The notes beneath the pieces were generated by a model, which was not told where the DNA came from, made no database searches, and worked only from the letters and a program-made list of their open reading frames with translations. A program made the position numbers and the translations under genes. Positions 13,696 to 46,302 of a DNA stretch of 64,000 bases are shown here, one piece after another; position 1 is the stretch's first letter, and each line of letters opens with the position of its first letter. Source of the DNA: Patescibacteria group bacterium (GTDB taxonomy: Bacteria > Patescibacteriota > Minisyncoccia > Phycocordibacterales > DATDWN01); the NCBI GenBank assembly GCA_040384485.1, contig JAZKJH010000004.1, forward strand, positions 5,928 through 69,927. Reading direction: 5' to 3'.

Positions 13696-15909
13696 CTAAC
13701 TATTCTGTATCTGTTGGATAAACTTCTCTCCGTCCTCTTTCCAACTTGGTTGTGCGATTATTATTTCCCTAATCAATTTTATCGCATTTTGTTTTTGTCC
13801 AACATTATTATACGCAGCCGCCAAAGAAAGCTTGGCTTGTAGGTCTTGTGGGTTATTCTCAACTCTTTTCTGCAGAATAGCTATAACACTAGGGTAATCT
13901 CCCATATCCGCGTATGCTTTCAAAACTCTGGCGTCATTTATAAGGGGGTTTGTATCCACAAGACTCAACATCTCATTTGCAACCTCTGCATTTTTCGTAT
14001 ATATCGCTCCTACTAGATATATGAGTCTAGACTCGGTGGCTGAAGGTTTAAACTCGTACGCTTGTTTAAATAACTCCATCATTTTCTCTGTATTACCCAA
14101 CCCTAGATATGTAGAACCAGATTCAAAATATATACTTTGTTTCTTTGGTGACTCTACTCTCGCTCTATCCATATATTTCAATGCCTCTTCGTACATCCCG
14201 AAGCGGTTGAAGAAGCTCCCCGCAAAAACTAGGTACCGAGCGTCATTTGGTTGGCTTGCCACCTTTTCTTCCAGCTTTTGTTTGGTGTAATCAAAAAATT
14301 GTTGTTTTACTTCCTGACTTGCTTGACCTTGAGGAGACGATATTTGGACCGTGACTTGAGTCAACTGTTCTACCGCTTCCCCATTACCAAAAGAATTATA
14401 TGAGAAAGCTTTTTTGAACAAATCTAAATTCTCAGAAACATTACCGTTTGCTGGAGGACGTATAGCTTCTATTAAAGTAAAGTTTGCAGACATAGCTGGT
14501 ACGTTTACAAAGTAAATAACAAGTATAGTTCCAACTGTTGCTACAGGGACTACAACATATTTGAGAATGTCAGGTTTAAAGCTTTTTGTATAAAACTTTC
14601 CTTTATGTTCCACTCCAACCTGAGAAAATTGATGAACGTATGCCAGGATAGTAAAGAACAGCATGTAACTAATAAGATTGTCGAACACAAACAAGTTGTG
14701 GAACACATAAGCCATGACCACAGCTGTAAGTATTCCTTTTTCGTATACACCGAAACCTCCTCCCCTTCTCCAAAGGTAATAAAAGAATGCAAAGTATATA
14801 GATAAGTAAGATAGGAGTCCTAATATTCCTCCAGCAATCAGCCAATCAAGTACCAGGTTATGAGTGCGGTCAAACCACTCCTCTTGTCCAAAAAGATTTG
14901 GGTCATAGTACTTATTAAAAACAAAGTTAAAGTTTTCCTGTCCCCAACCAAGCAATGGTCTTTCTTTAAAACCCTCTATAGCCATCGGCCAAACATAATA
15001 TCTACCTTGAGTTTTTATCTCGGTAGGACTCAAGGTTACAAACCTAGACAAAACTGGATGTGTTTTTGCGTACTCAGTATTCTTAATTGAAACAAAGACA
15101 CCCAACACCACTAAAACTAAAGCAAAAATTCCGTAAGCAAAGTTTCTGATTTTTTTATTATTTCTCTCTTTCCAAATAAGTATTAACCCAAAAAGTGCTA
15201 GCCCGCCTATAAATCCTAGTATTGCCCCTCTGGTTGCAGTGTAATAAAGAATTATAGTTTGTAGCGCAGCAGCAATACCATAAAACCACTTCTGCCATTT
15301 CTCTTTTGCACCCGTAAAGAGCATGAGAAGTGACAGAAAAATACCGAACACCATATACATTGCCAAGTAAGAGGCATTCCCCATAGTTCCATCGACTCTC
15401 TCTCCACCTTGATTTATTTTTAAGGCACCAGACAACTGAACAAAGCCATAAAAAGCCATTATCAGACTAGCTATAATATTTGTATTTATGAAGCTGTGCC
15501 AAATATTTTTGGTTTTGAAAAAGGATGAAAGTACAAGATAGTAAAGACCCAAGTGGGCTAACAATACAAAACCTTCCATTCTTTCGTAGTTACTCCAGAA
15601 ACTTTTGTATGAGTTCTCACCAAGCAAGTCAGCAACAAATATAATAGCGATAAATGCCAAGATGCTTTTTGTTAACCAGGAGAATTGAGGTCGATAGTCT
15701 TTGTCTATAAAAGCCAGCGCAACATAAAGGCCAAATAAAATTTCCACCAATATCCTAAAAGTAAAACCTTTGCCTGATATAAAAGGAAAAAACATATTGT
15801 CTGGAACTATAAACACTATGAATGGCATCACGAACAGGCCTGCTGTAATCGTGTATTTAATAACGTTTTGTATTGTTTGCATATGGAGAAAGTATAACAA
15901 ATGGTGCAA
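13696..15909 (-). CDS. O-antigen ligase/polymerase-family membrane protein with C-terminal TPR repeats
   Basis: About 10 TM segments with the Wzy_C-like loop, then about 200 aa of TPR-like repeats (AYEFKPSATESRLIYLVGAIYT..., AKLSLAAAYNNVGQKQNAIKL). Confidence 0.6.
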   Translation of the reverse strand: MHHLLYFLHMQTIQNVIKYTITAGLFVMPFIVFIVPDNMFFPFISGKGFTFRILVEILFGLYVALAFIDKDYRPQFSWLTKSILAFIAIIFVADLLGENSYKSFWSNYERMEGFVLLAHLGLYYLVLSSFFKTKNIWHSFINTNIIASLIMAFYGFVQLSGALKINQGGERVDGTMGNASYLAMYMVFGIFLSLLMLFTGAKEKWQKWFYGIAAALQTIILYYTATRGAILGFIGGLALFGLILIWKERNNKKIRNFAYGIFALVLVVLGVFVSIKNTEYAKTHPVLSRFVTLSPTEIKTQGRYYVWPMAIEGFKERPLLGWGQENFNFVFNKYYDPNLFGQEEWFDRTHNLVLDWLIAGGILGLLSYLSIYFAFFYYLWRRGGGFGVYEKGILTAVVMAYVFHNLFVFDNLISYMLFFTILAYVHQFSQVGVEHKGKFYTKSFKPDILKYVVVPVATVGTILVIYFVNVPAMSANFTLIEAIRPPANGNVSENLDLFKKAFSYNSFGNGEAVEQLTQVTVQISSPQGQASQEVKQQFFDYTKQKLEEKVASQPNDARYLVFAGSFFNRFGMYEEALKYMDRARVESPKKQSIYFESGSTYLGLGNTEKMMELFKQAYEFKPSATESRLIYLVGAIYTKNAEVANEMLSLVDTNPLINDARVLKAYADMGDYPSVIAILQKRVENNPQDLQAKLSLAAAYNNVGQKQNAIKLIREIIIAQPSWKEDGEKFIQQIQNS

Positions 15910-15957
15910 GACCCTGCTAGTAAAAGGGCGTAAAATGAGCTAAAATCAGCTTACATT

Positions 15958-17226
15958 ATGCAAAGACTAAAAAGTCGCGGACTATTGGGCCTAAAATGGC
16001 TCGGGGCGTATTTTGAAACAGATGCAGTCTATATAGCAAAAAGTAGCTTTTGGCTTACCCTTGGGCAAGTCTCCTCTGCTATTATTGCCCTACTCTCTTC
16101 TGTCTTCTTTGCTAACTATGTAGACAAAGACATCTACGGACAATACAAGTTCGTTCTTTCACTAACCGGCATACTCGGAGCGTTATCACTTACTGGGATG
16201 GGCTCTGTAGTGGTCCAAGCAGTAGCGAAGGGCGCAGAAGGCATACTTAAGGACTCTGTACGAGTATCTCTACGCTGGGGTGTTTTTATCTTGTTTTTTG
16301 GATTATGTGGTTCAGGGTACTATTTCTTCAATGACAACAATGTACTTGGAACATCACTACTTATAGCTTCTATCGCTATGCCGCTCATGAACGCTTTTGG
16401 TTTATATGGCGGACTCTTTAGTGGACGAAAAAACTTCAAGTTGTCGACTTTGTATTGGCTAGCTACACAAAGTCTTACAACCATAGGTCTTGTGGTTTCA
16501 GCGATATATACACAAAGTGTAGTCTCACTTATTTTTATATATTTCGCTGTAAGTACTTTATGTGCACTATATGGATATTATCGTGTCATAACAAAATATA
16601 AGCCAAATGAAGTTCGAGATGGAACCATGATCCCCTACGGCAAACACATGAGTCTCATGAACCTTTTTGGTACACTAGCCAACCAATTAGATAAAGTCCT
16701 AGTCTTCCACTACCTTGGTGCTGTAAACCTAGCCATTTATTCTTTCTCCCAAGCCATCCCTGAACAAATCAAAGGAAGTTTTAAAAACCTTTTTGCTATA
16801 GCTCTGCCAAAATACGCTGTGCTAAGCGACCACGACCTACGAAAAAGTATTTTGAAAAAGACCGGCCAACTAACTGGCATCACTCTAATAATAGTTCTGG
16901 GATACATAGTATGTGCACCACTTGTTTTCAAAATACTTTTTCCAAAATACACAGAGGCTGTTATATACTCACAGATCTACGCTCTGGGCCTTTTGGCTAT
17001 CCCAGGTATCTCACTTTTCGCTACCTACTTCCAGCTGAAAAAAGCTACGAGGACTATGTATAAACTAACAGTGATAAGTAACACTGTAACCATCGCACTA
17101 ACTCTTGTTCTAGTATACAAATTTGGACTAAAAGGAGCTGTGATAGAAAACGGTCTGTCTTGGCTCACTATGCTCGCAGTAAACTACTATTTCTTTGCAA
17201 CTCACAAAGAAACTATTTCTTCCTAA
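15958..17226 (+). CDS. Wzx-type oligosaccharide flippase (polysaccharide biosynthesis protein)
   Basis: 422 aa with about 12 TM segments. The N-terminal pattern is typical of the MOP/Wzx family. Confidence 0.6.
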   Translation: MQRLKSRGLLGLKWLGAYFETDAVYIAKSSFWLTLGQVSSAIIALLSSVFFANYVDKDIYGQYKFVLSLTGILGALSLTGMGSVVVQAVAKGAEGILKDSVRVSLRWGVFILFFGLCGSGYYFFNDNNVLGTSLLIASIAMPLMNAFGLYGGLFSGRKNFKLSTLYWLATQSLTTIGLVVSAIYTQSVVSLIFIYFAVSTLCALYGYYRVITKYKPNEVRDGTMIPYGKHMSLMNLFGTLANQLDKVLVFHYLGAVNLAIYSFSQAIPEQIKGSFKNLFAIALPKYAVLSDHDLRKSILKKTGQLTGITLIIVLGYIVCAPLVFKILFPKYTEAVIYSQIYALGLLAIPGISLFATYFQLKKATRTMYKLTVISNTVTIALTLVLVYKFGLKGAVIENGLSWLTMLAVNYYFFATHKETISS

Positions 17227-17932
17227 GTAAATATACTTTTTCGTGGAATAAGTTTGGAACGATATTTTTAAATATACTTTCTACTATCGGCTGTATTTTT
17301 CTAGCCAACCTTGGAAACGCCCATAATTTTGGGATAAACAACCCATAAGGATACTCTTCCAATACCTCAAAATGTTCTTCTAACATCTTTTTATATTGTG
17401 AGTAAGTTCTATAGTCTTTGTAATATGGTTTGTTATAAGTTTTTAACTTAGCATATATTGATTTAGAAGAAGCTGCTGTACAGATATATAAACCACCCCT
17501 CTTTATTCTCCTATCCAGGAAAGCCATCTCATTATCGAAAATCCCAGCAGATAAATACCCTGTAGCCAAGACAATATCAAACTCCACTTCTGGACACTCA
17601 TTTTTAACAAAGAAAGAAAATTTCTTGTCCTCTCCTGAAAGTTTCTGTGCCTGAATTACCATATCTGGAGCAATGTCTGTCCCTACAATTTTTGAAAAAA
17701 CATTGGGAAAAAATTTATCAACACTTCTCGAGATTATCCCGTCTGCACAAGCAATATCCAAAAGCAACAAATCTTTTTTGTCTTTTGTAATACCTCTTAG
17801 TATTTGAAAAACTATGTCTCGCCTTTTGTTGAAAAAAAACTTAACATAAGTATCTATGTGTTTGTCGTATCTTTTATTAGAATACTGAGAACTTTCCTGA
17901 TTGTAGTAACCGACTATATTATATTCGTCCAT
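17213..17932 (-). CDS. Class I SAM-dependent methyltransferase
   Basis: Motif I LLDIACADGIISR and a post-I acidic residue. Confidence 0.6.
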   Translation of the reverse strand: MDEYNIVGYYNQESSQYSNKRYDKHIDTYVKFFFNKRRDIVFQILRGITKDKKDLLLLDIACADGIISRSVDKFFPNVFSKIVGTDIAPDMVIQAQKLSGEDKKFSFFVKNECPEVEFDIVLATGYLSAGIFDNEMAFLDRRIKRGGLYICTAASSKSIYAKLKTYNKPYYKDYRTYSQYKKMLEEHFEVLEEYPYGLFIPKLWAFPRLARKIQPIVESIFKNIVPNLFHEKVYLLRKK

Positions 17933-17933
17933 A

Positions 17934-19178
17934 TTATTTATTTTTCAGTATTCCAGCATAACACAAAAGTGTCTTATTTACCCAATCATCCGAGTTAAAT
18001 TCAGTTACAACTCTCGTGTAACCAGAAGTTCCGAATTGCAATGCTTTTTCAGTGTTATTAATTAAATCAACAACCCTTTCTACAACAACTTCAACATTAG
18101 ACGGATCCACAATATAACCATTCAGGCCATCTATTACCGCTTCTTTTGTCCCTCCGAATACTGCTCCCACAATTGGTTTTTTGGATGCCATTGCTTCTAG
18201 ATTCACTGTTGGAAATGGGTCTAAGTATCGTGAAAGAACTAGAACAACATCAGAAACTCGGTATACATACTTCATTTCCTCCCTGGATACCCAGCCTGTA
18301 AAAACTATTCTGTCCTCCACCCCCATCTCTTTTGCTTTGTGCAGAATCTCCTCTGAAGACTTACCTTGTTCACCTGCAACCAGTAAAACTGTGTTTTGCA
18401 CATTGTCTGAAACTTTTTTCAAAACTTCGACCGTAGTCATGCTACCCTTTGCAGATGAAAGTCTCCCACCAAAAAACAAAACTTTTTTACCGTTTAGCTG
18501 AAGTTTATCTTTCGTCTGCTCAATTTTTTCACCATCTACCTGCCACTCACTGATGTCGATACCATTATGCAAAGTTTCTATAGGTTTTACTCCATTACTC
18601 TCTAAAGCCGTCTTTAAGGCATCACTTACAGCAAATATTTTATCTGTATATTTTAAATAATGCTTTATTAAGATATTCCGGAAAGGGTTGTAGAAAAACC
18701 TGTATTGAACTAGTTGTTTAAATGGTGTTACTTTCTCCAAAACTACACCTCCCTTGTCATCCACTATTGCCCCTAGTTTTCCATAATGAAAAGACATAAC
18801 GTCATGCATAGTCAAAAACACTGCTTTTGAAAACTCTTTAGCTAGTTTTAAAACAGCATACGACAAATGCGTATGGATATTGTGTGCATGAACAACATCG
18901 GGAGAAAACTCTTTGAGTATCTTTTCAACTTCTACAAGAACACCTTTGTTATATAAACTTTTATACGCTCTCCAACGCATATCATACTTACTGTATATTT
19001 TATAAACCCCTAGTGCCCCAAAACTAGATAGACCTGACTCGTGAGACTCATCTGTAATGGTCACGACCAAAACCTCATTACCTTTTTCCAGTAACTTTTT
19101 AGCTAAATTGTATGCAATAATCCCTGCCCCACCAAAACTCTTTGGAGGAAAATCATCAGATAAAATAACTATTTTCAT
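17934..19178 (-). CDS. Glycosyltransferase family 4 (GT-B)
   Basis: N-terminal IVILSDDFPPKSFGGAG, C-terminal GT1 domain with EAMASKKPIV. Confidence 0.75.
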   Translation of the reverse strand: MKIVILSDDFPPKSFGGAGIIAYNLAKKLLEKGNEVLVVTITDESHESGLSSFGALGVYKIYSKYDMRWRAYKSLYNKGVLVEVEKILKEFSPDVVHAHNIHTHLSYAVLKLAKEFSKAVFLTMHDVMSFHYGKLGAIVDDKGGVVLEKVTPFKQLVQYRFFYNPFRNILIKHYLKYTDKIFAVSDALKTALESNGVKPIETLHNGIDISEWQVDGEKIEQTKDKLQLNGKKVLFFGGRLSSAKGSMTTVEVLKKVSDNVQNTVLLVAGEQGKSSEEILHKAKEMGVEDRIVFTGWVSREEMKYVYRVSDVVLVLSRYLDPFPTVNLEAMASKKPIVGAVFGGTKEAVIDGLNGYIVDPSNVEVVVERVVDLINNTEKALQFGTSGYTRVVTEFNSDDWVNKTLLCYAGILKNK

Positions 19179-19179: not shown

Positions 19180-19824
19180 TTATTTTTTTAAAACTACACA
19201 CCACCCTATTGCATGTTTATGATTTGCAATACTTTTATCAAAACTATCCAACCAAATAGATCCTATTCCAATAACTTTTGCAAATTGATTAAAAATCCTT
19301 CCAAGCATTGGTTTTTTGTATAAATGTAATAAGTCTATAAAGTATCTGATGACCATTTGTGAAATAGTGCTAAAAAATCCCCCCCTTTGCTTACATTCCA
19401 CCACCGTAAAGCCAGCGTCACTAAAAAGTTGATTCAAACCAAATTTGGTATACCTATAGAAGTCATACGGTTCTTCATGAAGCTCGTTCATTTGCGGAAC
19501 AGTAACCAGGTCGTGTCCGCCAGCCCTTAAGACTCGATAAATCTCTTTTGCACATAAATGAGGTCGGGCTAGATGCTCGAATACTTGTGTGCAGACCACA
19601 GAGTCAAAATTATTATCAGAAAATGGAATATTCTCCGCAGAACCAACAACATCCACATTTGGTCCTTCTGCAACATCCATCTTGGTATAATTAGAGCATT
19701 TAAAGTGGTTACTGTATCTGTCATTACCCCCAGCACCCACATCCAAAACATCCCCTCTAATATAGTGAGACGCTTCAATTACCTGTTTTTTAAGTAAAAA
19801 CCTGTCTGGTTGAAAAATATACAT
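19180..19824 (-). CDS. Class I SAM-dependent methyltransferase (type 11-like)
   Basis: VLDVGAGGNDRYS motif I, and YRVLRAGGHDLVTVP. Confidence 0.65.
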   Translation of the reverse strand: MYIFQPDRFLLKKQVIEASHYIRGDVLDVGAGGNDRYSNHFKCSNYTKMDVAEGPNVDVVGSAENIPFSDNNFDSVVCTQVFEHLARPHLCAKEIYRVLRAGGHDLVTVPQMNELHEEPYDFYRYTKFGLNQLFSDAGFTVVECKQRGGFFSTISQMVIRYFIDLLHLYKKPMLGRIFNQFAKVIGIGSIWLDSFDKSIANHKHAIGWCVVLKK

Positions 19825-19836: not shown

Positions 19837-22278
19837 TTATTTCTTATACTCTAACCTTACATTATGCTGCCCAGAAGATAAAGGGAGGCTCATATATATA
19901 TAATTGGCCCTCTCTGGTACAACCCTCTCTCCATCTAGATACGCTTCCCAGTTTGGAAGCCAAGTATCTCCTATCAAAAATTGAACATCAATTGGAGTAT
20001 CGATAAAAAACTCTTTTATATCTCCTACTTTGGTTGGCTGAATTTCTTTTACAAAGGTTGACTTATACGTGCCAATGGTTTCACCTGACTCAACAACAAC
20101 CACTGGGTTTTCGGACTTTAAGATCACTTCAGCTTGTTCTAAGAACTTAGTATTTTGGGGAATACTTACGACCCGGTCAGTAATAAAATATCTAGGATAA
20201 GGATTTCTCAACTCGTAAATATATATAGGGGTTTTACATTCACCTAATTCGTCAAAGTATACTTGTATAAAATCACCATCAGTCACCTTATAAGTTGTTA
20301 AAATATATTTAACATTCATTGCTCTATAAATATTCTTCCTATCCACAATCTTCTTTGTTTTTTCCTCAAATGAAATATTCTCTCCAGACAAAACATGATC
20401 TGATGTCACTGCAAAACGTGACCCTACGAATCCTATCATTTCAGAAACTCTGACAGGGGCATATGGCTCGTAACCATCAGCACTCTCCAGTCCGTATAGA
20501 ATATGAAGATCTGGCTCAATCAATTCCCTCCTCAAAGCAAACTCTTCATTTGAAACATCCCAATTACCTAAATCTCTAAAACCACATCTAGTTGACTCAT
20601 TGTACATAGTCTCAGACATAAGTGGAGAGAAAATACGGAAAGGTGTTGAAGATTCGAGGGATTTAATAAACTCGGCAGTTTTTGGTGCATTAATAATTTC
20701 TGACTTCGGAACTCCGACGATCCTATGTACATACACTAAAGAAAAGTTACTGACAGCGATAAAGACGGCAAGGGAGGTAAATATAACGAATGACAACTTT
20801 TTAATATTTCTAATTAGGAAATAAGAAGCAATACCTGCTGAAATTAAAATGATGATACTGTAATTAAATATATAAAACTGATCAAGAGATTGATTTAAAT
20901 ATGTGTTAATAATTTTTTGATAGTGCTCAATCGGAAAACCTCCTGTCGTTTCACTGTATAAATTATTTATAAAGTAATCTCCTAAAAAAGTTTCTATTTT
21001 TTCAAAAAATAAAATATTTACAAATGAGAATAGTGTAATTAGTGGCAGGAAAACCCAAAGAAACCCTCGCTTTATCCACAAAGTCATCCTTTCAATCTTT
21101 GGATATAATTCCTCTCTATTCCTCCACAAAGCGTCCAAAGTCATAGCCACAACAACTCCGAAAGCAAAGTCCCCGATAAACATCACTCTAAAAGTTTCCC
21201 TGAACGAATCAAAAAATGGAAGCTGGTGTAGTATAAAAGCTAAAGGTGAATACTGGACAGACAAAGTGAAACAAGAAACCAGGGTCCAAAAGAAAAAATT
21301 AAAGTATGGAGTTTTTTTTAAGTGCCTCCAGTTTGCAAAAGTCATTGCAAAAACAAAAAGCTGCAAAATCCCGACATAATTTTGAAAGCTTTGTGATAAC
21401 GATATGTATGGGAACTTAAACCAAGGTAAAAAATAATAAATTAGATGGTGTGGCCCGTATGCATAGGCTGTTGCCTGACTGAGGGAGACACCCTCAGATC
21501 TTGCGGTCATGGGTAAAAAGTCCAAAACAGCTTTAATTTGAGGCCACCCTTCTATCAAAGAAATTAATACAACTAGTACAAATAGACCAAACTCTAAAAA
21601 TAGAACTCTGAATATTGATCCATTGAGACTTCGTTTATAAACAAGATATAGCCAGAATGAAAAAGTTAAAACATAAAGGTAAACTAAAAATTGAACATGC
21701 CCAGAAAGCCAACCATAACCCAAAACTAAACCTAGTAGGATACATAAAAATACTCTCTTTAAAACTTTCGAGTCAACGATATGGTCCACCAAATACAAAG
21801 ACAATGGCATCAAAAAATAATAATTAGTAATTATTATTGTCTCAGACCACAACATCACTTGGCCAGCAAAAATAAAAGTTGTAGCACCAAATATTGAAGA
21901 AAAATGACTCACTCCTAAACGTCTGATAAATAGGTACGAAAAAACATAAGCCAGAATCATATAAGTAACATCAAGAAATCTCAAAACATCAAAAGCATCC
22001 ATAAAAGAAAGGAGTGCTTGGTTGATAGGGTTAAACCAAGTTGAGGAGATCGAAACATACACTGGAAATCCGGATAAAATGGACTTGCTAATTAACTCTG
22101 TTGAGCTCGAAAGGAAGTTAAAGTATGGTGAATAGGTTAAAAGGAAATCTAAATGTGAAAAAACCTTTGATTGAAAAATAACTTCTCTAAAAACTAATAA
22201 AATCGCCAGGACGGGAGCTAAAAAAATAATAAATTTCGTGGCTCCCTCAAAACTACAAACTTTAGAAAACTTCTTCAT
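19837..22278 (-). CDS. Large polytopic membrane protein, YfhO/GT-C-like putative glycosyltransferase
   Basis: 813 aa. More than 12 TM segments in the N-terminal two thirds, plus a C-terminal soluble beta-rich domain, an architecture typical of YfhO/GT-C enzymes. Confidence 0.4.
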   Translation of the reverse strand: MKKFSKVCSFEGATKFIIFLAPVLAILLVFREVIFQSKVFSHLDFLLTYSPYFNFLSSSTELISKSILSGFPVYVSISSTWFNPINQALLSFMDAFDVLRFLDVTYMILAYVFSYLFIRRLGVSHFSSIFGATTFIFAGQVMLWSETIIITNYYFLMPLSLYLVDHIVDSKVLKRVFLCILLGLVLGYGWLSGHVQFLVYLYVLTFSFWLYLVYKRSLNGSIFRVLFLEFGLFVLVVLISLIEGWPQIKAVLDFLPMTARSEGVSLSQATAYAYGPHHLIYYFLPWFKFPYISLSQSFQNYVGILQLFVFAMTFANWRHLKKTPYFNFFFWTLVSCFTLSVQYSPLAFILHQLPFFDSFRETFRVMFIGDFAFGVVVAMTLDALWRNREELYPKIERMTLWIKRGFLWVFLPLITLFSFVNILFFEKIETFLGDYFINNLYSETTGGFPIEHYQKIINTYLNQSLDQFYIFNYSIIILISAGIASYFLIRNIKKLSFVIFTSLAVFIAVSNFSLVYVHRIVGVPKSEIINAPKTAEFIKSLESSTPFRIFSPLMSETMYNESTRCGFRDLGNWDVSNEEFALRRELIEPDLHILYGLESADGYEPYAPVRVSEMIGFVGSRFAVTSDHVLSGENISFEEKTKKIVDRKNIYRAMNVKYILTTYKVTDGDFIQVYFDELGECKTPIYIYELRNPYPRYFITDRVVSIPQNTKFLEQAEVILKSENPVVVVESGETIGTYKSTFVKEIQPTKVGDIKEFFIDTPIDVQFLIGDTWLPNWEAYLDGERVVPERANYIYMSLPLSSGQHNVRLEYKK

Positions 22279-23423: not shown

Positions 23424-23433
23424 ATAAGGAATA

Positions 23434-39466: not shown

Positions 39467-40447
39467 TTATTGAATTATACCCTTTTCTCGAGCTTTTTCT
39501 ATGACTTCTAAAACTCTCGCTTTAGAAGAATGTTCTTCTAGAATTTTTGAATACTCTGGAGCTAAATCAGTTTGCTTATAACTATTCACAAGAAACTGGC
39601 CTACCTCCTCCAGTTTAAGTTTAAAATCTTCTAAATCCTTGAACTGCCATATTCTCTTGTAATCCAGTCTATTTGAGCCTGGTTCATATATATCTATTGT
39701 TTCAGTGAGGAGCATGCAGTTGTTACCTAGTATCTCCCAAAAACGTGCTGTATCAAAACCCCCACCACCTACAGATATACCTACTTTTGAGCGAGCCAAG
39801 TTTTTGTAGAAATTTTCCTGATCGGTTTTATCTGTAAAGCATGTAAAGTTATTTTCAACACAAAAATTTTTAAGGACTTGTGTCACCTCTCGTCTCAAAA
39901 TAGGATACTCGTCCTGACCAAAAACACAGAAAAAATCTACATCTTTTTTTATGTCCACTGAATAAAACTTGGTGTAGTCACTTTCTATACCAAAAGGTAA
40001 GGGCAGAATGTTTCGCACATACGGTTTTTCCCTACGAAAATACAACACGCATTTTCGTTCCATCTCTTTATCTATTTTACCTCGGTTAAGATACGAGCCA
40101 TCTACAATAGCTTTTTGTATACCTGTGTCATATCTGCCGTTTTTACCTATCTCACCACCATCAACAAAAACTGTTTTGTTAAACTCGTTAATTGTTTCTG
40201 CAAGTTTATAGTTAGTGTTGTCTTTACCCCAACAAAAAAGAATCAGATCAGAATTCTTTGCATACTCAACAAATAAACCTTCGTCTAAACTAAACTCTGT
40301 ATCATCAAAACCCGACAAGTATCCTTTTGGCACTTTAAACTCAAAACCTGGATTTTCTGTTTTAAGTAAAATACAGCCATCTATTATGGTGTCTGTTAGA
40401 TAGTCATTTTTATACTCTGGAGTTATTATTGAAATTTTATAATTCAT
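39467..40447 (-). CDS. Hypothetical protein, possible CgeB/DUF3880-like glycosyltransferase
   Basis: C-terminal KVGISVGGGGFDTARFWEILGNNCMLLTE resembles the GT1-like C-terminal fold of CgeB-type proteins. This is a weak family call. Confidence 0.3.
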   Translation of the reverse strand: MNYKISIITPEYKNDYLTDTIIDGCILLKTENPGFEFKVPKGYLSGFDDTEFSLDEGLFVEYAKNSDLILFCWGKDNTNYKLAETINEFNKTVFVDGGEIGKNGRYDTGIQKAIVDGSYLNRGKIDKEMERKCVLYFRREKPYVRNILPLPFGIESDYTKFYSVDIKKDVDFFCVFGQDEYPILRREVTQVLKNFCVENNFTCFTDKTDQENFYKNLARSKVGISVGGGGFDTARFWEILGNNCMLLTETIDIYEPGSNRLDYKRIWQFKDLEDFKLKLEEVGQFLVNSYKQTDLAPEYSKILEEHSSKARVLEVIEKAREKGIIQ

Positions 40448-41498
40448 GTTTGTTTGATACTGACTCTATCACTTTTTTAAGTTCCAAACCAAGTGTTTCA
40501 ATTGAGGAAACTCTGTTTAACTTATCCTTACCTCTTTTGGCTACAATCTCCGCATTTTGTATATCAGCCTTAACTTTTAGTATCCCATCAGCTATGGCTT
40601 CTGGAGAATAGGCTTTTACTGTAAAAATCTCTCCAGGGTTGAATACCTCTCGTATTGCAGGTGTATCTGCTGTTATAACAGGCTTACTTGCCGAAACACA
40701 CTCATATACCTTGTTAGGTATCACTCGTTTTGTTTTGTCAGTTTTACCAAATATACCCAAACATACGTCTGCCTGACCCACTCTCTCTGCAAGTTGCTCT
40801 ATAGATAGATTTCCAACAAAATCTACATTTTTAATATTTAAAGTGCTCGCTAGGTTTAAGATATTCTTTTTTTCTTGTCCATCACCTATTATATCGAAAA
40901 CGATATCCGCATGTTCATCTAGAATTTTAGCGGCGCGAACGACATATTCTATACCTTGTAGCGGAATAAAGTGTCCATAAAGTAAAACTTTAAAATAACT
41001 ATTTTGTTTTTTTTCTCTTGGGTAAAAAAGTGAAGTATCAGCTCCAACTAAAATTCTCTTGAACTTTGATTCTTTTATACCAAATTCTTTTGAAACATAT
41101 TTTATATGTTCGTTTGTATCAAAAAGTATGAAGTCAGCAAGTGTTAATGATATTTTGTCTAAGCACCAAAAGTATAGTGCTCTAAGTGAGCCCTTTTTTA
41201 TCAAGCCTCTGTCCATAACCATTGAGTCGTAGATAGAAACAAATGCATCAAAAACTATAGGTTTTCTTGTAATAAGTCTGGCCAATATCATAGCCTGAAA
41301 ACCAGGATAACCGACAACCATTACTTCATAATTCCCCTTCAAGGTCCTATGCTTTTTCCACAGATCTATATATTTATTAAAGCCTTTTACCTTAGAAGAA
41401 CATTCTACTACCTCTACTCCATTAAGACTGAGTCCTTTTATTAAAACCTTGTTTCTATTATAGCTAGCGTCGTATATCCCAAAATAACAGACTTTCAT
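40437..41498 (-). CDS. Glycosyltransferase family 4
   Basis: MKVCYFGIYD N-terminus, C-terminal GT1 domain (ECVSASKPVIT). Confidence 0.7.
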   Translation of the reverse strand: MKVCYFGIYDASYNRNKVLIKGLSLNGVEVVECSSKVKGFNKYIDLWKKHRTLKGNYEVMVVGYPGFQAMILARLITRKPIVFDAFVSIYDSMVMDRGLIKKGSLRALYFWCLDKISLTLADFILFDTNEHIKYVSKEFGIKESKFKRILVGADTSLFYPREKKQNSYFKVLLYGHFIPLQGIEYVVRAAKILDEHADIVFDIIGDGQEKKNILNLASTLNIKNVDFVGNLSIEQLAERVGQADVCLGIFGKTDKTKRVIPNKVYECVSASKPVITADTPAIREVFNPGEIFTVKAYSPEAIADGILKVKADIQNAEIVAKRGKDKLNRVSSIETLGLELKKVIESVSNKHEL

Positions 41499-41501: not shown

Positions 41502-42551
41502 CTATTTTTTATATATTTCCTCGGAGATTTTACCGACCAAACTCTCAACACTAAAATCTTTCCGGATTTTGTTACTCAAATACAAAACAACATCAGCCAC
41601 ATCCTTGTTTTCCAGTGATAGTTGTATTTTAGAAAGCAGACTATCAGAATCTCGATAATTATATGAAAAAAGTGGGTTATATTTTTCAAAAACTGAAGTA
41701 AAAATGGTGTTAGTAGTGAAAGTAGGTATGCCTAAAAGTATCGTCTCCAACACTGCCTTGTCCATCCCCCCGTTTGGAGCTAGGTTTACTGCGATGTTTA
41801 TATCCTTGGTTACTTCAGCTATTTTTTCTTGCGCAACCCAACCTCTAAAAAAGACTTTGTTCATTATCTTTCCCTCAGCTATTAGAGACTCTAAAGTTTT
41901 TCTGTATTCTAAATCCTTATCACCTATAGCATCCCCAAAGAAGTGTAGTTCTGAATCAATACCATAGCTGTTTAGTTTGACTACAGTCTCCACCAAAACA
42001 TCTACATTTTTTATAGGAGTAATTCTACCTATATGACAAACTCTTAACACATTTCTGTCGTAAAGGTGTGGAGAAAAGGGATAGTTTTCCACTTTGATAC
42101 CGTGCCCAACATAAACCACCTTATCACTCTCTATACCAAAACTCTCTTTTCCGGATGTAAAAACCTTTTTAACAAACAACATTGCTAGTTTCAGTTTTGT
42201 ATCTACTTTCTTATGAACATACCAAAGATAAACTGGTATATTTTTGAACCTCCAGTGTAATCCCAAAAGAACAATATACACTGGGTTCATGTGAACGAAA
42301 ACTGAATCATACCTTAAGGAAAGCTGTTTGATATAAGCAAATAGGTTTTTTATATAGCCAATATTTCCAACACCTTTTTCCTTACCTAGAGAATACACAA
42401 AAACATTGGTCGGCAAAGCATGGTCGCCTTCATAAAGACAGATAACATAAACCTCAGTAAATTTCTTTGAAAACTCTATTAACCAGTTATGGAAAAAACC
42501 CAGAACTGGGTCACTACTATCCACTTTCTGTGTAAAAATCAGGATCCTCAT
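41502..42551 (-). CDS. Glycosyltransferase family 4-like
   Basis: MRILIFTQK start, GT-B two-domain layout. Confidence 0.6.
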   Translation of the reverse strand: MRILIFTQKVDSSDPVLGFFHNWLIEFSKKFTEVYVICLYEGDHALPTNVFVYSLGKEKGVGNIGYIKNLFAYIKQLSLRYDSVFVHMNPVYIVLLGLHWRFKNIPVYLWYVHKKVDTKLKLAMLFVKKVFTSGKESFGIESDKVVYVGHGIKVENYPFSPHLYDRNVLRVCHIGRITPIKNVDVLVETVVKLNSYGIDSELHFFGDAIGDKDLEYRKTLESLIAEGKIMNKVFFRGWVAQEKIAEVTKDINIAVNLAPNGGMDKAVLETILLGIPTFTTNTIFTSVFEKYNPLFSYNYRDSDSLLSKIQLSLENKDVADVVLYLSNKIRKDFSVESLVGKISEEIYKK

Positions 42552-42976
42552 ACGGTTTTATATTTAAAAATTCTTCTAGAAATAAAGAAAGTAAAACATG
42601 CTACGGTCGCCCCAGCAAAAATCTGAGATAGTAAAACAGCCAAATGCATTTTTTCTACAAAGATATACATGAGCAAAGTGTTCACTCCTAGACTAAACAA
42701 AGATGAAGCTAGGTAAATAAAGGATTGTCTTTGGATACCTTCTGTAGAAACATTTTTAAAAGTCCAAAACTTTTGCAAAATAAAACTAACAAAAAATGCT
42801 ACACAAAAAGCTATGATGGACGAGAGAAGGTAATGAACACCGACCACATGATACAAAAAAGAAAGTAGTAACAAATCCACAACAGCCGAAGTGCCTCCAG
42901 AAGCTACGTAGCGTAAAATAACATACTTATCAAAAAGTCCCCATCCCCAATCCCAACCTTTTTTTATAATACTCAT
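42548..42976 (-). CDS. GtrA-family membrane protein (polyprenol-sugar flippase-like)
   Basis: 142 aa with four TM segments. YVASGGTSAVVDLLLLSFLY and KFWTFKN are typical GtrA motifs. Confidence 0.7.
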   Translation of the reverse strand: MSIIKKGWDWGWGLFDKYVILRYVASGGTSAVVDLLLLSFLYHVVGVHYLLSSIIAFCVAFFVSFILQKFWTFKNVSTEGIQRQSFIYLASSLFSLGVNTLLMYIFVEKMHLAVLLSQIFAGATVACFTFFISRRIFKYKTV

Positions 42977-44109
42977 TTAGCGGTTTTGTTTAGATACTCA
43001 ATATATAGATTAACATAATCCTGAAAAGTTAAAGCTATTGACCTGATGTCATTTTGCATTTTGTGTTTTCTTTCTTCCCTTGCTTGATTATTCTCTATTG
43101 TGTTTATGACAGCATCGGAAATACAGATATCATCAAAGGTCTCGCAAATAACGGAGTTTATTTTGTTTACAAATAGATCTGTTTTGGCCAGGCCGACTTT
43201 TGTAGTCACGATAGGACAACCGGAAGCTCCTGCTTCAATAAGGGTCATGCCGTATCCTTCGTATTTTGAGGTAAGTAAAAATAAATCAGCAGTTTTATAT
43301 AGAGAAATTAAGTCTTTTTCCCAGCCAATAAATCTCACATTTTTGTTTATTCCGATTTTACTAGAGATACTTTCTAGGTTTTTTCTTTCACTACCCTCTC
43401 CTGCTATGACTAGTCCGGTCTGGGGATATTTTTCTAAAACTTTTTTAAATGCAACTATTGCTGTATCTATATTTTTCTCTTTCTCTAGTCGAGAAGCCAT
43501 TAAAACAATAAATTTGAATTCTGGAAATTCTGTACCTAAATTTCTTGCTGGAATTGTGTTTATGATTTTCTCGATGCTTATAAATACAGGTAAAATATCT
43601 ATTTTATCAGCTAGTTTTGGGTACTTTTTTACAATTGAGTCTCGTACAACACTACTGACCGCACGAATTCTGGATGCCCCATGAACAACAATACTTGCGA
43701 TAAAAACCCTTACCAAATTAAAAAATGATTTTTTAAATTCTGAACTCAAATAATCAGTATGAACTTGAATCTGCAGAGGAACCTCAAAAAACTTTGAGAT
43801 GACTAGACCGACAAAACCGGTTTGAAAAATATCCTGTGTTGAAATAACAATGTCATCATTTTTGCCTGATGATTTAAAAATATTTTTTACTAAAAAAATC
43901 GCGTCTAATACATATAGCCATTGGGAAATTGAGTTGGTCGGATAAATATGTAAATTTCCAAAACTTTTAAACTCATGTTTTTCTTTTCTTGTTGTGAATA
44001 CAACTATATGCAACTCTTCCATGCGTTTCGCATACTCCAAATTACGCAAAAGAACCTGACTTCCCTCTTCGAACAATTTTCTATCTGTTCCTATTGATAT
44101 GACTTTCAT
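42973..44109 (-). CDS. Glycosyltransferase family 4
   Basis: MKVISIGTDR start at 44109. It forms an ATGA overlap with the stop of the upstream gene, suggesting translational coupling. C-terminal EGYGMTLIEAGASGCPIVTT. Confidence 0.7.
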   Translation of the reverse strand: MKVISIGTDRKLFEEGSQVLLRNLEYAKRMEELHIVVFTTRKEKHEFKSFGNLHIYPTNSISQWLYVLDAIFLVKNIFKSSGKNDDIVISTQDIFQTGFVGLVISKFFEVPLQIQVHTDYLSSEFKKSFFNLVRVFIASIVVHGASRIRAVSSVVRDSIVKKYPKLADKIDILPVFISIEKIINTIPARNLGTEFPEFKFIVLMASRLEKEKNIDTAIVAFKKVLEKYPQTGLVIAGEGSERKNLESISSKIGINKNVRFIGWEKDLISLYKTADLFLLTSKYEGYGMTLIEAGASGCPIVTTKVGLAKTDLFVNKINSVICETFDDICISDAVINTIENNQAREERKHKMQNDIRSIALTFQDYVNLYIEYLNKTAK

Positions 44110-45128
44110 TGTGCAGAATTTGTTATTGCAATAAATTCCTCGGCAATCTCTTCCCAAGTATGGGTGAAATTAAAGTTTTTTACCCTTTCTTTTGCTCTCT
44201 CATAAGCTTCTTTATCCAAAAACTCAAGTATGGCCTTCTCTATTTCGTCTTCATTCAATGGATCCACAAAAGTACCTGCGTCTTTTATCCTATCGTATAT
44301 ACCCACCTCTTTAGTACAGATAAAAGGCTTATTGTACCTAATAGCATCCAATATCATATTCGGACTGATGTCTCCTAGGGAAACTAGGATCACCGCTCTA
44401 GAAAGTTTGATCTTCTTCATAAATTCCAAGAAGGTTAGATTCTCTGTAAGTAAATGAATACTGTGTGCTTGACTTACTTTCTCTGCCACCTTTCTTAGAG
44501 TATTTATGTTTTTCCATTTTAAATCACGTACGGATGCAACAAACAGATTTGAGTCAGTTTCGAATACTCCTTCCTTTGGACCATAATAGTTTTCAATTAT
44601 TGATGTTTTGGAAATATCCATGACATAAGCTGGAACAAAAATTTGTTTTTGCCACTCGGTAGAAAACACTACACGCGATGCATTATTTAAAGTCCATTTA
44701 GTTATTGAATATATTATTTTTTCTTTATATGTAAGAAAACCAGCTTCTGTCTCATAAAAGTTTCTTAACAGTATCGGTTTACTTGTTCTCTCTACATACT
44801 GCTCCCAAAGAAAGTCCCCTCCAGTTCGAATAATAACTTTTTTACCAAAGACCTTTCCCAAAAAAACACTAGGTGCTCCTACAGAAAAGGTATCTAGAGC
44901 AAAAACAACATCGCTTTTTAAAAATTGTGGAATAACTTTTACGGCAAACCACAAATGACGCACCCCTGTTGGTAGAATATTTTCTATTCCAAAAGTCTTT
45001 ACAGAAACTCTATGCCCTTTCTTTTCAAACTCTTCTTTCAAGTTCTTTGCATACTGGGCTGGTCCACCTATTTTAGGGGGGTATATACCCGTTGTTATTA
45101 AAATATTTAGTTTAGAATTCATTTGCAT
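44106..45128 (-). CDS. Glycosyltransferase family 4-like
   Basis: LNILITTGIYPPKIGGPAQYA N-terminus, GT-B fold. Confidence 0.55.
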   Translation of the reverse strand: MQMNSKLNILITTGIYPPKIGGPAQYAKNLKEEFEKKGHRVSVKTFGIENILPTGVRHLWFAVKVIPQFLKSDVVFALDTFSVGAPSVFLGKVFGKKVIIRTGGDFLWEQYVERTSKPILLRNFYETEAGFLTYKEKIIYSITKWTLNNASRVVFSTEWQKQIFVPAYVMDISKTSIIENYYGPKEGVFETDSNLFVASVRDLKWKNINTLRKVAEKVSQAHSIHLLTENLTFLEFMKKIKLSRAVILVSLGDISPNMILDAIRYNKPFICTKEVGIYDRIKDAGTFVDPLNEDEIEKAILEFLDKEAYERAKERVKNFNFTHTWEEIAEEFIAITNSAQ

Positions 45129-46302
45129 TTACTGTAAGTTTATTAAAAACATCTTTCATTCCTTCAGTTATTTTATCCCAACCGTATTTTGTGGAGGCTA
45201 CCCTTTTGCCGTTATTTGACAACTTGATGTACAAGTCTTTGTCGTTCAATAATGTATTAACCGCTCTAGCTACGCTTTGAGGATTGTCGGGCGAACAGAA
45301 AATTCCCGTCTCCTTGTCGTCTATAAAGTCTGGGATTCCTCCAACTGGAGTTGCGACTACTGGCAACCCGCTTGCCATAGCTTCTATAAAAGAGTTTCCG
45401 AAACCTTCTGAGCGACTTGGTCTAATAAAAATATCACATACAGAAAAATACCTCGGGATGTCTTTGTAATCCAAAAAACCCAAGAAGCGCACCCTGTCAG
45501 ATACACCTAGCTCCTTAGCCAACGCCTGCAGCTTGTGCCCCTCTTCTCCTTTACCGATAACCATAAACACTACCCTTTTTGGCAGGTGCGTGAGAGCCCT
45601 CACAACATCGTCTACTGCATTTTTGTGTGTGAGTCGGCCTGTAGTAACCAAAAACACTTCATCTGCTTTCTTATTAAGCATCAGAGCCATTTCTGCTTTC
45701 TCTTCTACTGTGAACTGTTTGGTAAATACCTCTAAATCAACTCCATTAGGGACCAAAACTGCCTCGCCTGTAAAACCATTTTTCTTTGCACGCTGGATCA
45801 AAAAAGTACTGATACCTGTAACTATGTGTGTAAGCCTAAGGGAAAGTTTCCATGACAGTGCAATTAACCCAAACCACCTATAGGTTAAATGATTCTCTGA
45901 GTCCCCTTCTTGTAGAGTTAAGATTATTGGAATTCTTCTTTTTCTTGTAAAAAATCTGAAAATATTAAATATATATCCAGCTCCTGTCCCAAAAGTCACC
46001 ATCATTCCCCAAATCAAAAAATAATTATTTTTATAATTTAGTTTGTTGATAAGTATTGCACCTCTAAAAGGTAACAAAAGTTTATCAATGGTTTCTGAGC
46101 CCATCCCCACACGATACACATTAACATTTCCAATTTTTTCAAAGTCTGGAAGGTCTTTTCGTATTTTTGCAGTAACAAGATCGAAGTCAAAACTTTCTCC
46201 CAGTCGTCTGGTTATTTCTGTTATAGCAACCTCTGCACCTCCAACAAAGGGATAATAGGCGGTGGATAGCACCAAAACTCTTTTTTTACTATTCGTAGAC
46301 AT
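45112..46302 (-). CDS. Glycosyltransferase family 4
   Basis: RVLVLSTAYYPFVGGAEV, and SEGFGNSFIEAMASGLPVVAT (the E-x7-E region). Confidence 0.75.
   Translation of the reverse strand: MSTNSKKRVLVLSTAYYPFVGGAEVAITEITRRLGESFDFDLVTAKIRKDLPDFEKIGNVNVYRVGMGSETIDKLLLPFRGAILINKLNYKNNYFLIWGMMVTFGTGAGYIFNIFRFFTRKRRIPIILTLQEGDSENHLTYRWFGLIALSWKLSLRLTHIVTGISTFLIQRAKKNGFTGEAVLVPNGVDLEVFTKQFTVEEKAEMALMLNKKADEVFLVTTGRLTHKNAVDDVVRALTHLPKRVVFMVIGKGEEGHKLQALAKELGVSDRVRFLGFLDYKDIPRYFSVCDIFIRPSRSEGFGNSFIEAMASGLPVVATPVGGIPDFIDDKETGIFCSPDNPQSVARAVNTLLNDKDLYIKLSNNGKRVASTKYGWDKITEGMKDVFNKLTVNANEF

Follow-up and report, generated by a model that had tools for sequence, protein, structure and literature searches.

The stretch of DNA analysed here is a window of 64,000 nucleotides (nt) from contig JAZKJH010000004.1 of an uncultured Patescibacteria (Candidate Phyla Radiation, CPR) bacterium, and the subject of this work is a 33-kb locus at window positions 13696-46302 in which genes of glycan synthesis and transfer follow one another with hardly a gap. 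Genes are called below by the lower coordinate of their open reading frame (ORF).

Layout and gene content of the locus

Gene families were assigned with Pfam and NCBIfam, 58 window ORFs being scanned, and Pfam places every gene named in a preliminary description of this DNA where that description had it and in the family that it had been given. The locus contains three glycosyltransferases (GTs) of family GT2 that resemble polyprenyl-phosphate-sugar synthases, one GtrA protein, five polytopic proteins that we assign to the GT-C type, a Wzx flippase, a ligase-like protein that joins a Wzy_C domain to TPR repeats, seven to eight GT4 and one to two GT47-like enzymes, five methyltransferases, one GNAT acetyltransferase and one AsnB-type amidotransferase. 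When ORFs of at least 100 amino acids (aa) are counted, there are 28 in the locus, 25 on the minus strand and three (15958, 34776 and 35515) on the plus strand, which replaces the earlier count of 28 minus-strand genes out of 30. At 23 of the 27 junctions neighbouring ORFs overlap or are separated by no more than 5 nt, as the earlier claim of tight, overlapping genes would have it, and the ATGA start/stop overlap described at 44106-44109 is present in the sequence. The minus-strand bias is wider than the locus, since it extends to nearly all genes and tRNAs between about 6.4 and 54.7 kb, with a negative GC skew throughout; co-orientation alone is therefore not special, and it is the tight packing that sets the locus apart.

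The GC content of the locus is 0.347 (0.305-0.402 for individual genes) against 0.394 in the remaining window, and the GC content of third codon positions (GC3) is 0.303 against 0.350 (Mann-Whitney p = 0.002). Thus the dip in GC content that had been reported is real and amounts to about 5 points (34.7% vs 39.4%), while the values first attached to it, about 30% against 38-40%, have to be corrected. The flanks are occupied by housekeeping genes: SecA, a class I aminoacyl-tRNA synthetase, pyruvate kinase, FtsH, IF-3, tRNAs and tmRNA. The best matches of the flanking SecA among GTDB species genomes are metagenome-assembled genomes (MAGs) of Paceibacterota/Paceibacteria, Kaiserbacteria and Saccharibacteria, with 59-66% identity.

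Predicted membrane glycosyltransferases and their proposed lipid-linked donors

Five genes of the locus encode large polytopic proteins, for which the following assignments are proposed:

19837-22278, minus strand: predicted GT-C-type membrane glycosyltransferase of the YfhO family, 813 aa, of which about 300 form a soluble domain at the C terminus
23434-25107, minus strand: predicted GT-C-fold membrane glycosyltransferase of a family absent from Pfam and NCBIfam, 557 aa
25109-26890, minus strand: second member (tandem paralogue) of the predicted 23434 GT-C family, 593 aa
30448-32043, minus strand: predicted membrane glycosyltransferase of GT-C fold, 531 aa, from a second uncatalogued family
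36106-37530, minus strand: predicted PMT_2 (ArnT/PMT-like) GT-C-type membrane glycosyltransferase, 474 aa

All five are built alike: an N-terminal transmembrane (TM) helix is followed by a first loop, 40-130 residues long and with acidic residues in it, then by 7-13 more hydrophobic segments and, at the C terminus, by a soluble domain of 100-300 residues. In solved GT-C enzymes the Asp that is proposed to be catalytic lies after TM1 (PMC11127046). Acidic residues of the first loop are conserved in the families of three of the proteins: D35 (26 of 26 sequences) and E36 (25 of 26) in the 30448 family, E70 (68 of 68) and D83 (63 of 68) in the 23434 family, and D44 (27 of 27) in the YfhO-like 19837 family. 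In 36106 the first loop contains the motif WTDEG. The loop is placed on the extracytoplasmic side by the N-terminal K/R bias only, a bias seen for 23434 and 19837.

None of the five proteins has a match in NCBIfam. The match of 19837 to YfhO (PF09586) scores 17.7 bits, with a cut-off of 28.5, and covers the C-terminal 37 residues only; among 27 aligned homologues (18-58% identical), 23 match the same Pfam family, the best with E 7.9e-21. The score of 36106 against PMT_2 (PF13231) is 25.3 bits, with a cut-off of 26.1, and a phmmer search against PDB sequences gave no match for it; the collinear 474-aa gene of the closest relative's contig (68% identical) has a recorded PMT_2 match. For 23434, 25109 and 30448 no match was found in Pfam, NCBIfam or PDB sequences, and profile hidden Markov models (HMMs) of the 23434, 30448 and 19837 families retrieved no relevant PDB chain, including no PDB GT-C enzyme for 23434 or 30448. 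Of these approaches, fold comparison alone was informative. An AlphaFold (AF2) model of 23434 built on 68 sequences has a pLDDT of 93.7, and the top 20 PDB structures that Foldseek returns for it are all GT-C enzymes (PglB with E 5.6e-7, then DPY19, STT3, ArnT and AftA), whereas all MFS and other transporters among the matches have E > 0.1 and a probability of at most 0.14. Structural alignments of the 23434 and 30448 families to known GT-Cs have 8-14% identity.

The tandem neighbour 25109 aligns to the 23434 family profile over 542 columns (hhalign probability 99.6%, E 5e-24) and is therefore a full-length paralogue; the pair is kept in all related loci, and the family profile retrieves 1,944 representative clusters at E <= 1e-3. 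In a profile-profile comparison of the 23434 and 30448 families the probability was 1.2%, i.e., no sequence relationship was found, and for this reason we treat them as separate families. Neither 30448 nor the pair 23434/25109 has detectable sequence similarity, in the Pfam, NCBIfam and PDB profile searches, to CAZy GT22 (ALG9/ALG12) or other established GT-C families; several characterised GT-Cs of Gram-positive bacteria also have no Pfam domain (PMC8035078).

The genes that could supply these proteins with lipid-linked sugars are the following:

29444-30391, minus strand: ArnC/GtrB/PgfS-like GT2, 315 aa, with two C-terminal TM helices; proposed polyprenyl-phosphate sugar synthase
32894-33595, minus strand: DPM1/PpgS-like soluble GT2, 233 aa (Glycos_transf_2, 94 bits)
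34776-35537, plus strand: ArnC/PgfS-like GT2, 253 aa from the ATG at 34776 (Glycos_transf_2, 91 bits)
42548-42976, minus strand: GtrA-family protein with four TM segments, 142 aa (PF04138, 81 bits, cut-off 26.1); proposed polyprenyl-phosphate-sugar flippase

Models of polyprenyl-phosphate-sugar synthases are the best matches of all three GT2 proteins or are among their top two to three. The product of 29444, in which the TM segments lie at residues 234-252 and 271-289, matches the ArnC model with 197.6 bits over positions 7-312 of 316 and the PgfS model with 149 bits, both below the equivalog cut-offs. The best NCBIfam matches of 32894 are PpgS (top), AglJ and dolichyl-phosphate hexose transferase, and those of 34776 are the PgfS and ArnC models with about 68 bits. 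The start of 34776 lies in frame inside a longer ORF (34590-35537), and the counterpart in a relative is called as a 255-aa protein. Since all three proteins score below equivalog cut-offs, the models do not set their sugar specificity. With these results Pfam and NCBIfam confirm the three DPM1/GtrB-like GT2 enzymes and the single GtrA protein of the preliminary description.

A link between the two groups of genes is provided by natural gene fusions. Among the longer members of the 23434-type family found elsewhere, there are six with GtrA at the N terminus, three with GT2 at the N terminus and one with a methyltransferase domain. The GT2 domain of one such fusion protein (P0152) shares 55% identity with 32894 in an alignment of 228 residues (E 8e-93), and the methyltransferase domain of another (P0082) is 36% identical over 97 aa to the methyltransferase 26856 of the locus. 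Since P0152 joins such a GT2 domain to a 23434-type GT-C, 32894 very probably makes the donor for the tandem pair 23434/25109, and such a pairing would also account for the lack of a membrane anchor in 32894. The combination of GT2 synthase, GtrA and GT-C that had been suggested as the logic of the locus thus has all its parts there, and the GtrA and GT2 fusions support it independently.

It could be argued that the polytopic proteins without a database match are transporters or other membrane proteins and that the three-part logic has been over-read. The lack of Pfam, NCBIfam and PDB-sequence matches for 23434, 25109 and 30448 would agree with this. However, the high-confidence models have significant similarity to GT-C enzymes only, the acidic residues after TM1 are invariant, and proteins of this type are naturally fused to GtrA and GT2 domains. 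The GT-C fold matches and the conserved acidic residues lead us to reject the transporter alternative as extremely improbable, and the assignment of the polytopic proteins to GT-C-type transferases is supported by the structural models. The proteins had been called GT-C-like before, and assignment to transporter families, which would have spoken against this, was not obtained: the Foldseek results, the paralogy of the tandem pair, the YfhO family of 19837 and the PMT_2 match of the relative's protein all point the other way.

The Wzy_C-TPR anchor and the proposed assembly line

At the downstream end of the minus-strand genes two further membrane proteins are encoded:

13696-15909, minus strand: polytopic Wzy_C protein (WaaL/PglL-type) of 737 aa with a TPR domain at its C terminus, beside secA
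15958-17226, plus strand: Wzx-type (MOP/Polysacc_synt) flippase, 422 aa (PF01943, 67.5 bits)

The Wzy_C domain of 13696 (PF04932, 86.6 bits, cut-off 31.7) spans residues 213-369 of a protein with about 11-13 TM segments and is followed by matches to several TPR families; together with the Polysacc_synt match of 15958 this agrees with the O-antigen ligase with a TPR tail and the Wzx that had been recognised at this place. At the end of the large loop the protein has a His (H350) within the motif DRTHN, in the pattern H350-N-x9-G-x2-G; the candidate counterparts of such residues in Escherichia coli WaaL are R215, R288 and H338 (PMC3643930). A K/R-rich loop (431-451) precedes the TM segment 452-470, and positive-inside reasoning on these two elements places the TPR domain outside the membrane, where it could take hold of an acceptor, either protein or glycan, a role also proposed for the TPR domain of TfpW (10.1101/2020.04.19.049825).

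Comparison with relatives separates the constant from the variable parts of the locus. The closest relative contig, Logan SRR10823795_3083 (L084/L085; GC 0.31), is collinear with the locus from 40437 to 22284, with 67-88% protein identity. The segment 17213-22278 is replaced there: the YfhO gene and the GT4 gene each have only 40% identity, the latter being inverted as well, the methyltransferase corresponding to 17213 is only 42% identical, 19180 is absent and two carbamoyltransferase genes are added, while Wzx next to the swapped segment is 85% identical. The added genes lie at positions 12809-17514 of L084, where the two carbamoyltransferase genes, arranged in tandem (Carbam_trans_N/C; products of 576 and 579 aa), and the inverted GT4 gene take the place of 19180 and the GT4 gene 17934, which implies a carbamoylated variant of the glycan.

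The contigs L081/L082 and L083 and a JGI contig, all three more distant, keep only the block from 29444 or 26856 to Wzx and the Wzy_C-TPR gene, with 40-73% identity, and have upstream of it a GT2-GtrA fusion, a second YfhO gene, or epimerase and epimerase-methyltransferase genes. The fusion, a single polypeptide of 363-365 aa, is found at positions 3433-4530 of L083 and in the JGI 3300050046 contig, in both cases adjoining the second YfhO gene; in this form the three-component system is condensed into two genes. Wzx is 63-85% identical among the relatives. Homologues of the Wzy_C-TPR protein have 54% identity in L083 and 34-44% identity in five GTDB Paceibacteria species (L002, L003, L005, L007 and L008), where the gene lies upstream of secA on the same strand. 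Its neighbours in L002 and L003 are genes for GDP-mannose dehydratase, an epimerase, ManC, a PMM-like protein, a TylF-type methyltransferase and a Wzm/Wzt ABC transporter with a Wzt_C domain, a pathway type that needs no Wzy polymerase. In L002 an IS200-like (Y1_Tnp) transposase gene lies between the Wzy_C-TPR gene and secA (6666-7337) and is a possible agent of rearrangement at the anchor.

Since gene content differs among relatives beside a fixed Wzy_C-TPR/secA pair, we regard the locus as a variable, modular glycan island on a conserved anchor. The island had been proposed before, and in the relatives' contigs and in GC and GC3 the locus is found to be neither invariant nor at core composition. 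Its gene set is exchanged between relatives, in the manner of O-antigen and capsule loci, and so probably sets a strain-specific surface. A related question is whether the low-GC block is foreign or mis-binned, through an assembly chimera or recent transfer from another phylum. The GC content 4.7 points below the flanks and a VirD4/TraG-like gene 18 nt upstream of the block fit such an origin; the recurrence of the gene order, including Wzy_C-TPR beside secA, in independent Patescibacteria contigs and GTDB genomes argues against it, as does the fact that the named homologues of both novel GT-C families come from Patescibacteria-type MAGs (most matches being unnamed). No tRNA, integrase or repeat boundary was found at the block edges either, and a foreign origin is very improbable.

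The persistence of the Wzy_C-TPR gene also bears on its function. Because the gene stays while Wzx-type and ABC-type pathways change around it, its product is ligase- or oligosaccharyltransferase-like rather than a repeat-unit polymerase, and judged from its sequence and conservation it is most likely a glycan ligase or O-oligosaccharyltransferase that transfers the finished glycan to the final acceptor. In the competing explanation the locus would make a wall polysaccharide or capsule polymerised by the Wzx/Wzy mechanism, with the Wzy_C-TPR protein as the polymerase, an LCP enzyme encoded elsewhere joining the polymer to peptidoglycan, and the GT-Cs adding only side branches. Pfam Wzy_C also includes some Wzy polymerases, and Wzx and the Wzy_C protein are encoded next to each other and conserved together. 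A precedent exists in the wall polysaccharide of Bacillus anthracis, which pairs Wzx/Wzy assembly with the three-component system GtsABC (PMC8035078). On the other hand, the Wzy_C-TPR protein is a conserved anchor (34-54% identity) amid entirely different glycan genes, one set of which is of the Wzm/Wzt type, and there is no gene for a chain-length regulator or LCP enzyme in the window. Polymerases, by contrast, are specific for the repeat unit and are among the most variable genes of such loci. On this pattern of conservation the polymerase reading is ranked below the ligase reading, and as an account of the whole locus it appears quite unlikely.

Taken together, these data lead us to interpret the locus as a surface-glycan assembly line of a Patescibacteria bacterium that combines two known routes, with a probability of about 0.7. 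The genes present, their GT-C folds, the links by fusion and the differences among relatives are shown by the data, while the order of steps, the sugars, the donors and the acceptor are inferred. The steps would run as follows. In the first route, the families present suggest that a lipid-linked oligosaccharide would be made on the cytoplasmic face by seven to eight GT4 and one to two GT47-like enzymes, tailored by the methyltransferases, the GNAT enzyme and the AsnB-type amidotransferase, and moved to the outer face by Wzx. In the second route, to which fold, family and gene fusions point, the three GT2 enzymes would load single sugars on polyprenyl phosphate, the single GtrA protein would carry these donors across the membrane, and the five GT-C-type proteins (19837, 23434/25109, 30448 and 36106) would extend or decorate the glycan outside the cell. 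In the last step, the Wzy_C-TPR protein would pass the finished glycan to a surface protein or to a wall or lipid anchor.

Several points weigh against this interpretation. All evidence is computational and comes from one MAG. Five GT-Cs face three GT2 enzymes and one GtrA protein, so that the pairing cannot be one-to-one and is itself deduced; in Lactococcus lactis, one GtrA-type flippase serves three GT-A/GT-C pairs (PMC8035078). The window's own YfhO-like and PMT_2-like proteins stay below the Pfam cut-offs. The sequence of the Wzy_C domain cannot tell ligases, O-oligosaccharyltransferases and polymerases apart (PMC3643930), and the PglL_A motif (PF15864), which separates PglL from WaaL (PMC3643930), was not found in 13696 at E <= 0.01 in the Pfam scan; the motif was defined on proteobacterial sequences (PMC3643930), and for this reason its absence carries little weight in this phylum. 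A search of the window for type IV pilin leader motifs, as marks of possible acceptors, found none, and no acceptor was identified. Among the 58 ORFs scanned there is no initiating phosphoglycosyltransferase (Bac_transf or MraY/WecA-type), and the scans of the 64-kb window likewise gave no nucleotide-sugar synthesis gene, Wzz/PCP chain-length regulator or LCP-type wall ligase. The cytoplasmic route is therefore incomplete as seen, and the genes that the Wzx/Wzy route calls for may be located elsewhere in the genome.

Alternatively, the locus may hold several independent pathways side by side with different targets, for example YfhO acting on a teichoic-acid-like polymer, PMT_2 in protein O-glycosylation and a separate Wzx-dependent oligosaccharide. 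The GT-A/GT-C pairs of Bacillus subtilis, Listeria and L. lactis do act on different polymers with one GtrA-type flippase (PMC8035078), the locus appears to comprise at least three transcription units (see below), and its sub-blocks are swapped independently between relatives. Against this stand the core order from 29444/26856 to 13696, which is kept in four independent contigs, and the presence of one GtrA, one Wzx and one ligase-type gene for the whole block, with no second acceptor-specific component seen. We therefore consider separate pathways unlikely and prefer the single assembly line.

The mechanism and the type of system are already known: a surface-glycan locus with embedded multi-component modules of transmembrane glycosylation. 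All three parts of such modules as they occur in Gram-positive bacteria (CsbB/GtcA/YfhO of B. subtilis, Staphylococcus aureus and Listeria; CsdAB, CsdCD and CsdEF with CflA of L. lactis) are present at the locus, i.e., the GT2 synthase, the GtrA-type protein and the polytopic GT-C (YfhO, PMT_2 or without a Pfam domain) on the outside, and there, too, one GtrA protein works with several pairs (PMC8035078). The locus described here differs in that five GT-Cs and three GT2 enzymes are contiguous and accompanied by Wzx, a ligase-type gene and about ten GT-B enzymes, in that two of its GT-C families are absent from Pfam and NCBIfam, in its Patescibacterium host and in that no teichoic-acid genes were seen in the window. 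Patescibacteria are generally held to lack lipopolysaccharide (LPS). The Gtr systems of O-antigen glucosylation (GtrA/GtrB/Gtr* of Shigella and Salmonella) and the GT136 pentofuranose system of Citrobacter share with the locus the logic of a lipid-phosphate donor, a flippase and a GT-C that modifies a Wzx-dependent glycan (PMC11127046), but they are single three-gene modules, often phage-borne, of diderms with LPS, whereas here several modules lie inside the main locus.

The synthesis of mycobacterial arabinogalactan and lipoarabinomannan (Ppm1/PpgS synthases; Emb, AftA-D and PimE) offers a case in which several GT-Cs share few polyprenyl-phosphate-sugar donors outside the membrane. The best match of 32894 is the PpgS model, and AftA, AftB, AftD, EmbC and PimE are among the structural matches of the locus GT-Cs. 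However, the identity is 8-14% with no sequence-level relationship, no genes of arabinose or decaprenyl pathways are present here, and the locus proteins are much smaller and without Emb-type carbohydrate-binding modules. The likeness to ALG12/ALG9 (GT22) and the PMTs of the eukaryotic endoplasmic reticulum (10-14% identity, no HMM-level PDB match) is similarly one of fold and probably of donor type, not of family membership. With the WaaL/PglL ligases and oligosaccharyltransferases 13696 shares a strong Wzy_C domain and the conserved His at the end of the large loop, but not a detected PglL_A motif, and no lipid A-core is expected in this organism. The fusion to TPR and the fixed place beside secA are features of this lineage's Wzy_C protein; TfpW also has a TPR domain outside a glycosylating membrane enzyme, yet it is a GT-C and not a Wzy_C protein (10.1101/2020.04.19.049825).

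What is new is the Patescibacteria setting, the density of GT-Cs and the two GT-C-fold families absent from Pfam and NCBIfam. To our knowledge, little has been established about the cell surface of Patescibacteria, ultra-small bacteria of which every cultivated member is attached to another microbe. Glycosylation processes are called "unexplored" in a study of Saccharibacteria pili (PMC11623550); our literature search on Patescibacteria and GT-C found no paper, and a broader one on CPR, glycosyltransferases, cell surface and O-antigen found only unrelated O-antigen papers. The locus supplies a gene set for a CPR surface glycan, and the Wzy_C-TPR gene beside secA is an anchor by which strain-specific glycan loci can be located in other Paceibacteria. 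The two GT-C-fold families, one with about 1,900 clusters and with GtrA and GT2 fusions, are open to characterisation and cataloguing, as was done for GT136 in 2024 (PMC11127046). A bolder picture, which we regard as doubtful, joins these points: the glycan would be built mostly outside by the five GT-Cs as in mycobacterial arabinan, the 23434/25109 and 30448 types would be candidates for new CAZy families, and the Wzy_C-TPR protein encoded beside secA would act as a general O-oligosaccharyltransferase, guided by its TPR domain, that puts methylated glycans differing from strain to strain on the surface proteins of CPR bacteria (giant adhesins, pili, S-layer), glycans that would govern host attachment or phage evasion.

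Other genes of the locus and its surroundings

The remaining genes of the locus encode cytoplasmic glycosyltransferases and modifying enzymes, the methyltransferases being of the S-adenosylmethionine (SAM) type:

17213-17932, minus strand: SAM methyltransferase, 239 aa (Methyltransf_12/25/11), inside the cassette swapped in the closest relative
17934-19178, minus strand: GT4 glycosyltransferase, 414 aa (Glycos_transf_1, 117 bits; Glyco_transf_4, 80 bits)
19180-19824, minus strand: SAM methyltransferase, 214 aa (Methyltransf_11, 54.6 bits)
22284-23450, minus strand: GT4 glycosyltransferase, 388 aa (Glycos_transf_1, 106 bits)
26856-27581, minus strand: SAM methyltransferase with a hydrophobic C-terminal tail, 241 aa (Methyltransf_11, 80.6 bits)
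27586-29442, minus strand: AsnB-type glutamine-dependent amidotransferase, 618 aa (Asn_synthase, 338 bits)
32043-32918, minus strand: SAM methyltransferase with N-terminal CxxC...CxxC, 291 aa (Methyltransf_23, 92.7 bits)
33595-34698, minus strand: GT4 glycosyltransferase, 367 aa (Glycos_transf_1, 75 bits)
35515-36105, plus strand: GNAT acetyltransferase, 196 aa (Acetyltransf_1, 46 bits)
37523-38596, minus strand: Exostosin/GT47-like glycosyltransferase, 357 aa (PF03016, 37.7 bits, cut-off 33.4)
38562-39464, minus strand: SAM methyltransferase with N-terminal CxxC...CxxC, 300 aa (Methyltransf_23, 66 bits)
39467-40447, minus strand: 326-aa cytoplasmic protein, possibly a distant GT47-like paralogue (weak BLAST match to 37523, E 5.5e-4)
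40437-41498, minus strand: GT4 glycosyltransferase, 353 aa (Glycos_transf_1, 72.6 bits)
41502-42551, minus strand: GT4 glycosyltransferase, 349 aa (Glycos_transf_1, 39 bits)
42973-44109, minus strand: GT4 glycosyltransferase (Glycos_transf_1, 121.6 bits), start probably the ATG at 44109 in the ATGA overlap
44106-45128, minus strand: 340-aa protein, probably a divergent GT4/GT-B (Glycos_transf_1, 22.7 bits, the cut-off being 26.4)
45112-46302, minus strand: GT4 glycosyltransferase, 396 aa, first gene of the block (Glycos_transf_1, 144 bits), with core-like GC (0.39)

The estimate of about eleven GT4 enzymes given by the preliminary description has to be lowered: there are seven solid GT4 proteins and one below threshold (44106), which together with the GT47-like 37523 and its weak paralogue 39467 make about ten enzymes of GT-B type. 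No NCBIfam match was found for 37523, and no Pfam, NCBIfam or PDB (phmmer) match for 39467, which has an 81% identical counterpart in the closest relative's contig. Matches of the GT4 proteins to the Pfam family GT4-conflict, which would have indicated a defence system, were always far weaker than those to Glycos_transf_1 on the same residues, and this reading was dropped. The five methyltransferases, the GNAT and the AsnB protein stand as first described: Pfam recognises all of them, 32043 and 38562, for which Zn-ribbons had been proposed, are paralogues (27% identity, E 4e-29), and their Cys pairs are C10/C13/C32/C35 and C5/C8/C26/C29, respectively. The AsnB protein scores 501 bits with TIGR01536, above its cut-off, and its best match is the XrtA/PEP-CTERM amidotransferase model, below cut-off; the position of its gene beside the ArnC-like GT2 29444, maintained in three relatives (L081, L084 and L005), hints at an amidated sugar donor.

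Two features bear on transcription of the locus:

13635-13666, minus strand: terminator-like hairpin (14-pair stem and T-run; consensus match only), directly after the Wzy_C-TPR stop
34699-34775, no strand: divergent intergenic region of 77 bp between gene coordinates, with promoter-like hexamers on both strands

The hairpin is a probable 3' end of the last minus-strand transcription unit. The intergenic region is, on weak evidence, the probable promoter region for both the minus-strand unit from 34698 downward and the plus-strand GT2-GNAT pair; promoter-like hexamers are no more frequent than in shuffled sequence and were given weight only inside this interval. Together with the convergent junction at 36105/36106, this divergent gap suggests at least three transcription units.

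Upstream of the first GT4 gene of the locus and ending 18 nt before it, a minus-strand gene (46321-48198) with a core-like GC of 0.395 encodes an ATPase resembling coupling proteins of the VirD4/TraG type (T4SS-DNA_transf, 29.6 bits; TrwB_AAD_bind, 28 bits). It is preceded by a terminator-like hairpin (48215-48236, minus strand), and in view of this the gene may share a transcript with those of the glycan locus. A DUF4015 "putative glycosyl hydrolase" (49218-50399, minus strand, 313.7 bits) is encoded 3 kb upstream of the locus and could process polysaccharide; between its gene and the locus, positions 48275-49117 encode a protein of 280 aa that has no Pfam match and is hydrophobic in an N-terminal segment.

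Two other genes of the window encode candidate acceptors. The giant Ig-like surface protein noticed earlier at the window start corresponds to a minus-strand ORF of at least 912 aa (1-2736) that runs off the window; in its product a hydrophobic segment at the N terminus is accompanied by repeated Ig-like modules (VG..F.DPGATAHD.EDGNIT) and two EASCS.(L/I)GGWA.D modules. The ORF lies 11 kb from the locus with housekeeping genes between them, and its product is a possible glycosylation target. A DsbB-like gene adjoining a thioredoxin-fold gene (8826-9792, minus strand) suggests extracytoplasmic disulfide formation, which fits the Cys-containing surface protein. The second candidate is a 189-aa protein (58549-59118, minus strand) in which an N-terminal membrane anchor is followed by an Asn/Thr/Gly-rich low-complexity linker (NNNATSTENNNNTGTNTNTGANTGTNTGTNTGTP). 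The linker is of the same kind as the Ser/Thr-rich disordered regions that are reported to be glycosylated in streptococci (PMC12041528).

Two further observations concern the surroundings of the locus. Just downstream of the tmRNA gene (55324-55725) lies a 557-aa plus-strand ORF without a Pfam match (56043-57716). At 52646-52720 (minus strand) ARAGORN predicts a tRNA-Ile with the anticodon UAU, confirmed as a tRNA by Rfam; such a tRNA is uncommon in bacteria, where AUA is usually read by a lysidine-modified CAU tRNA.

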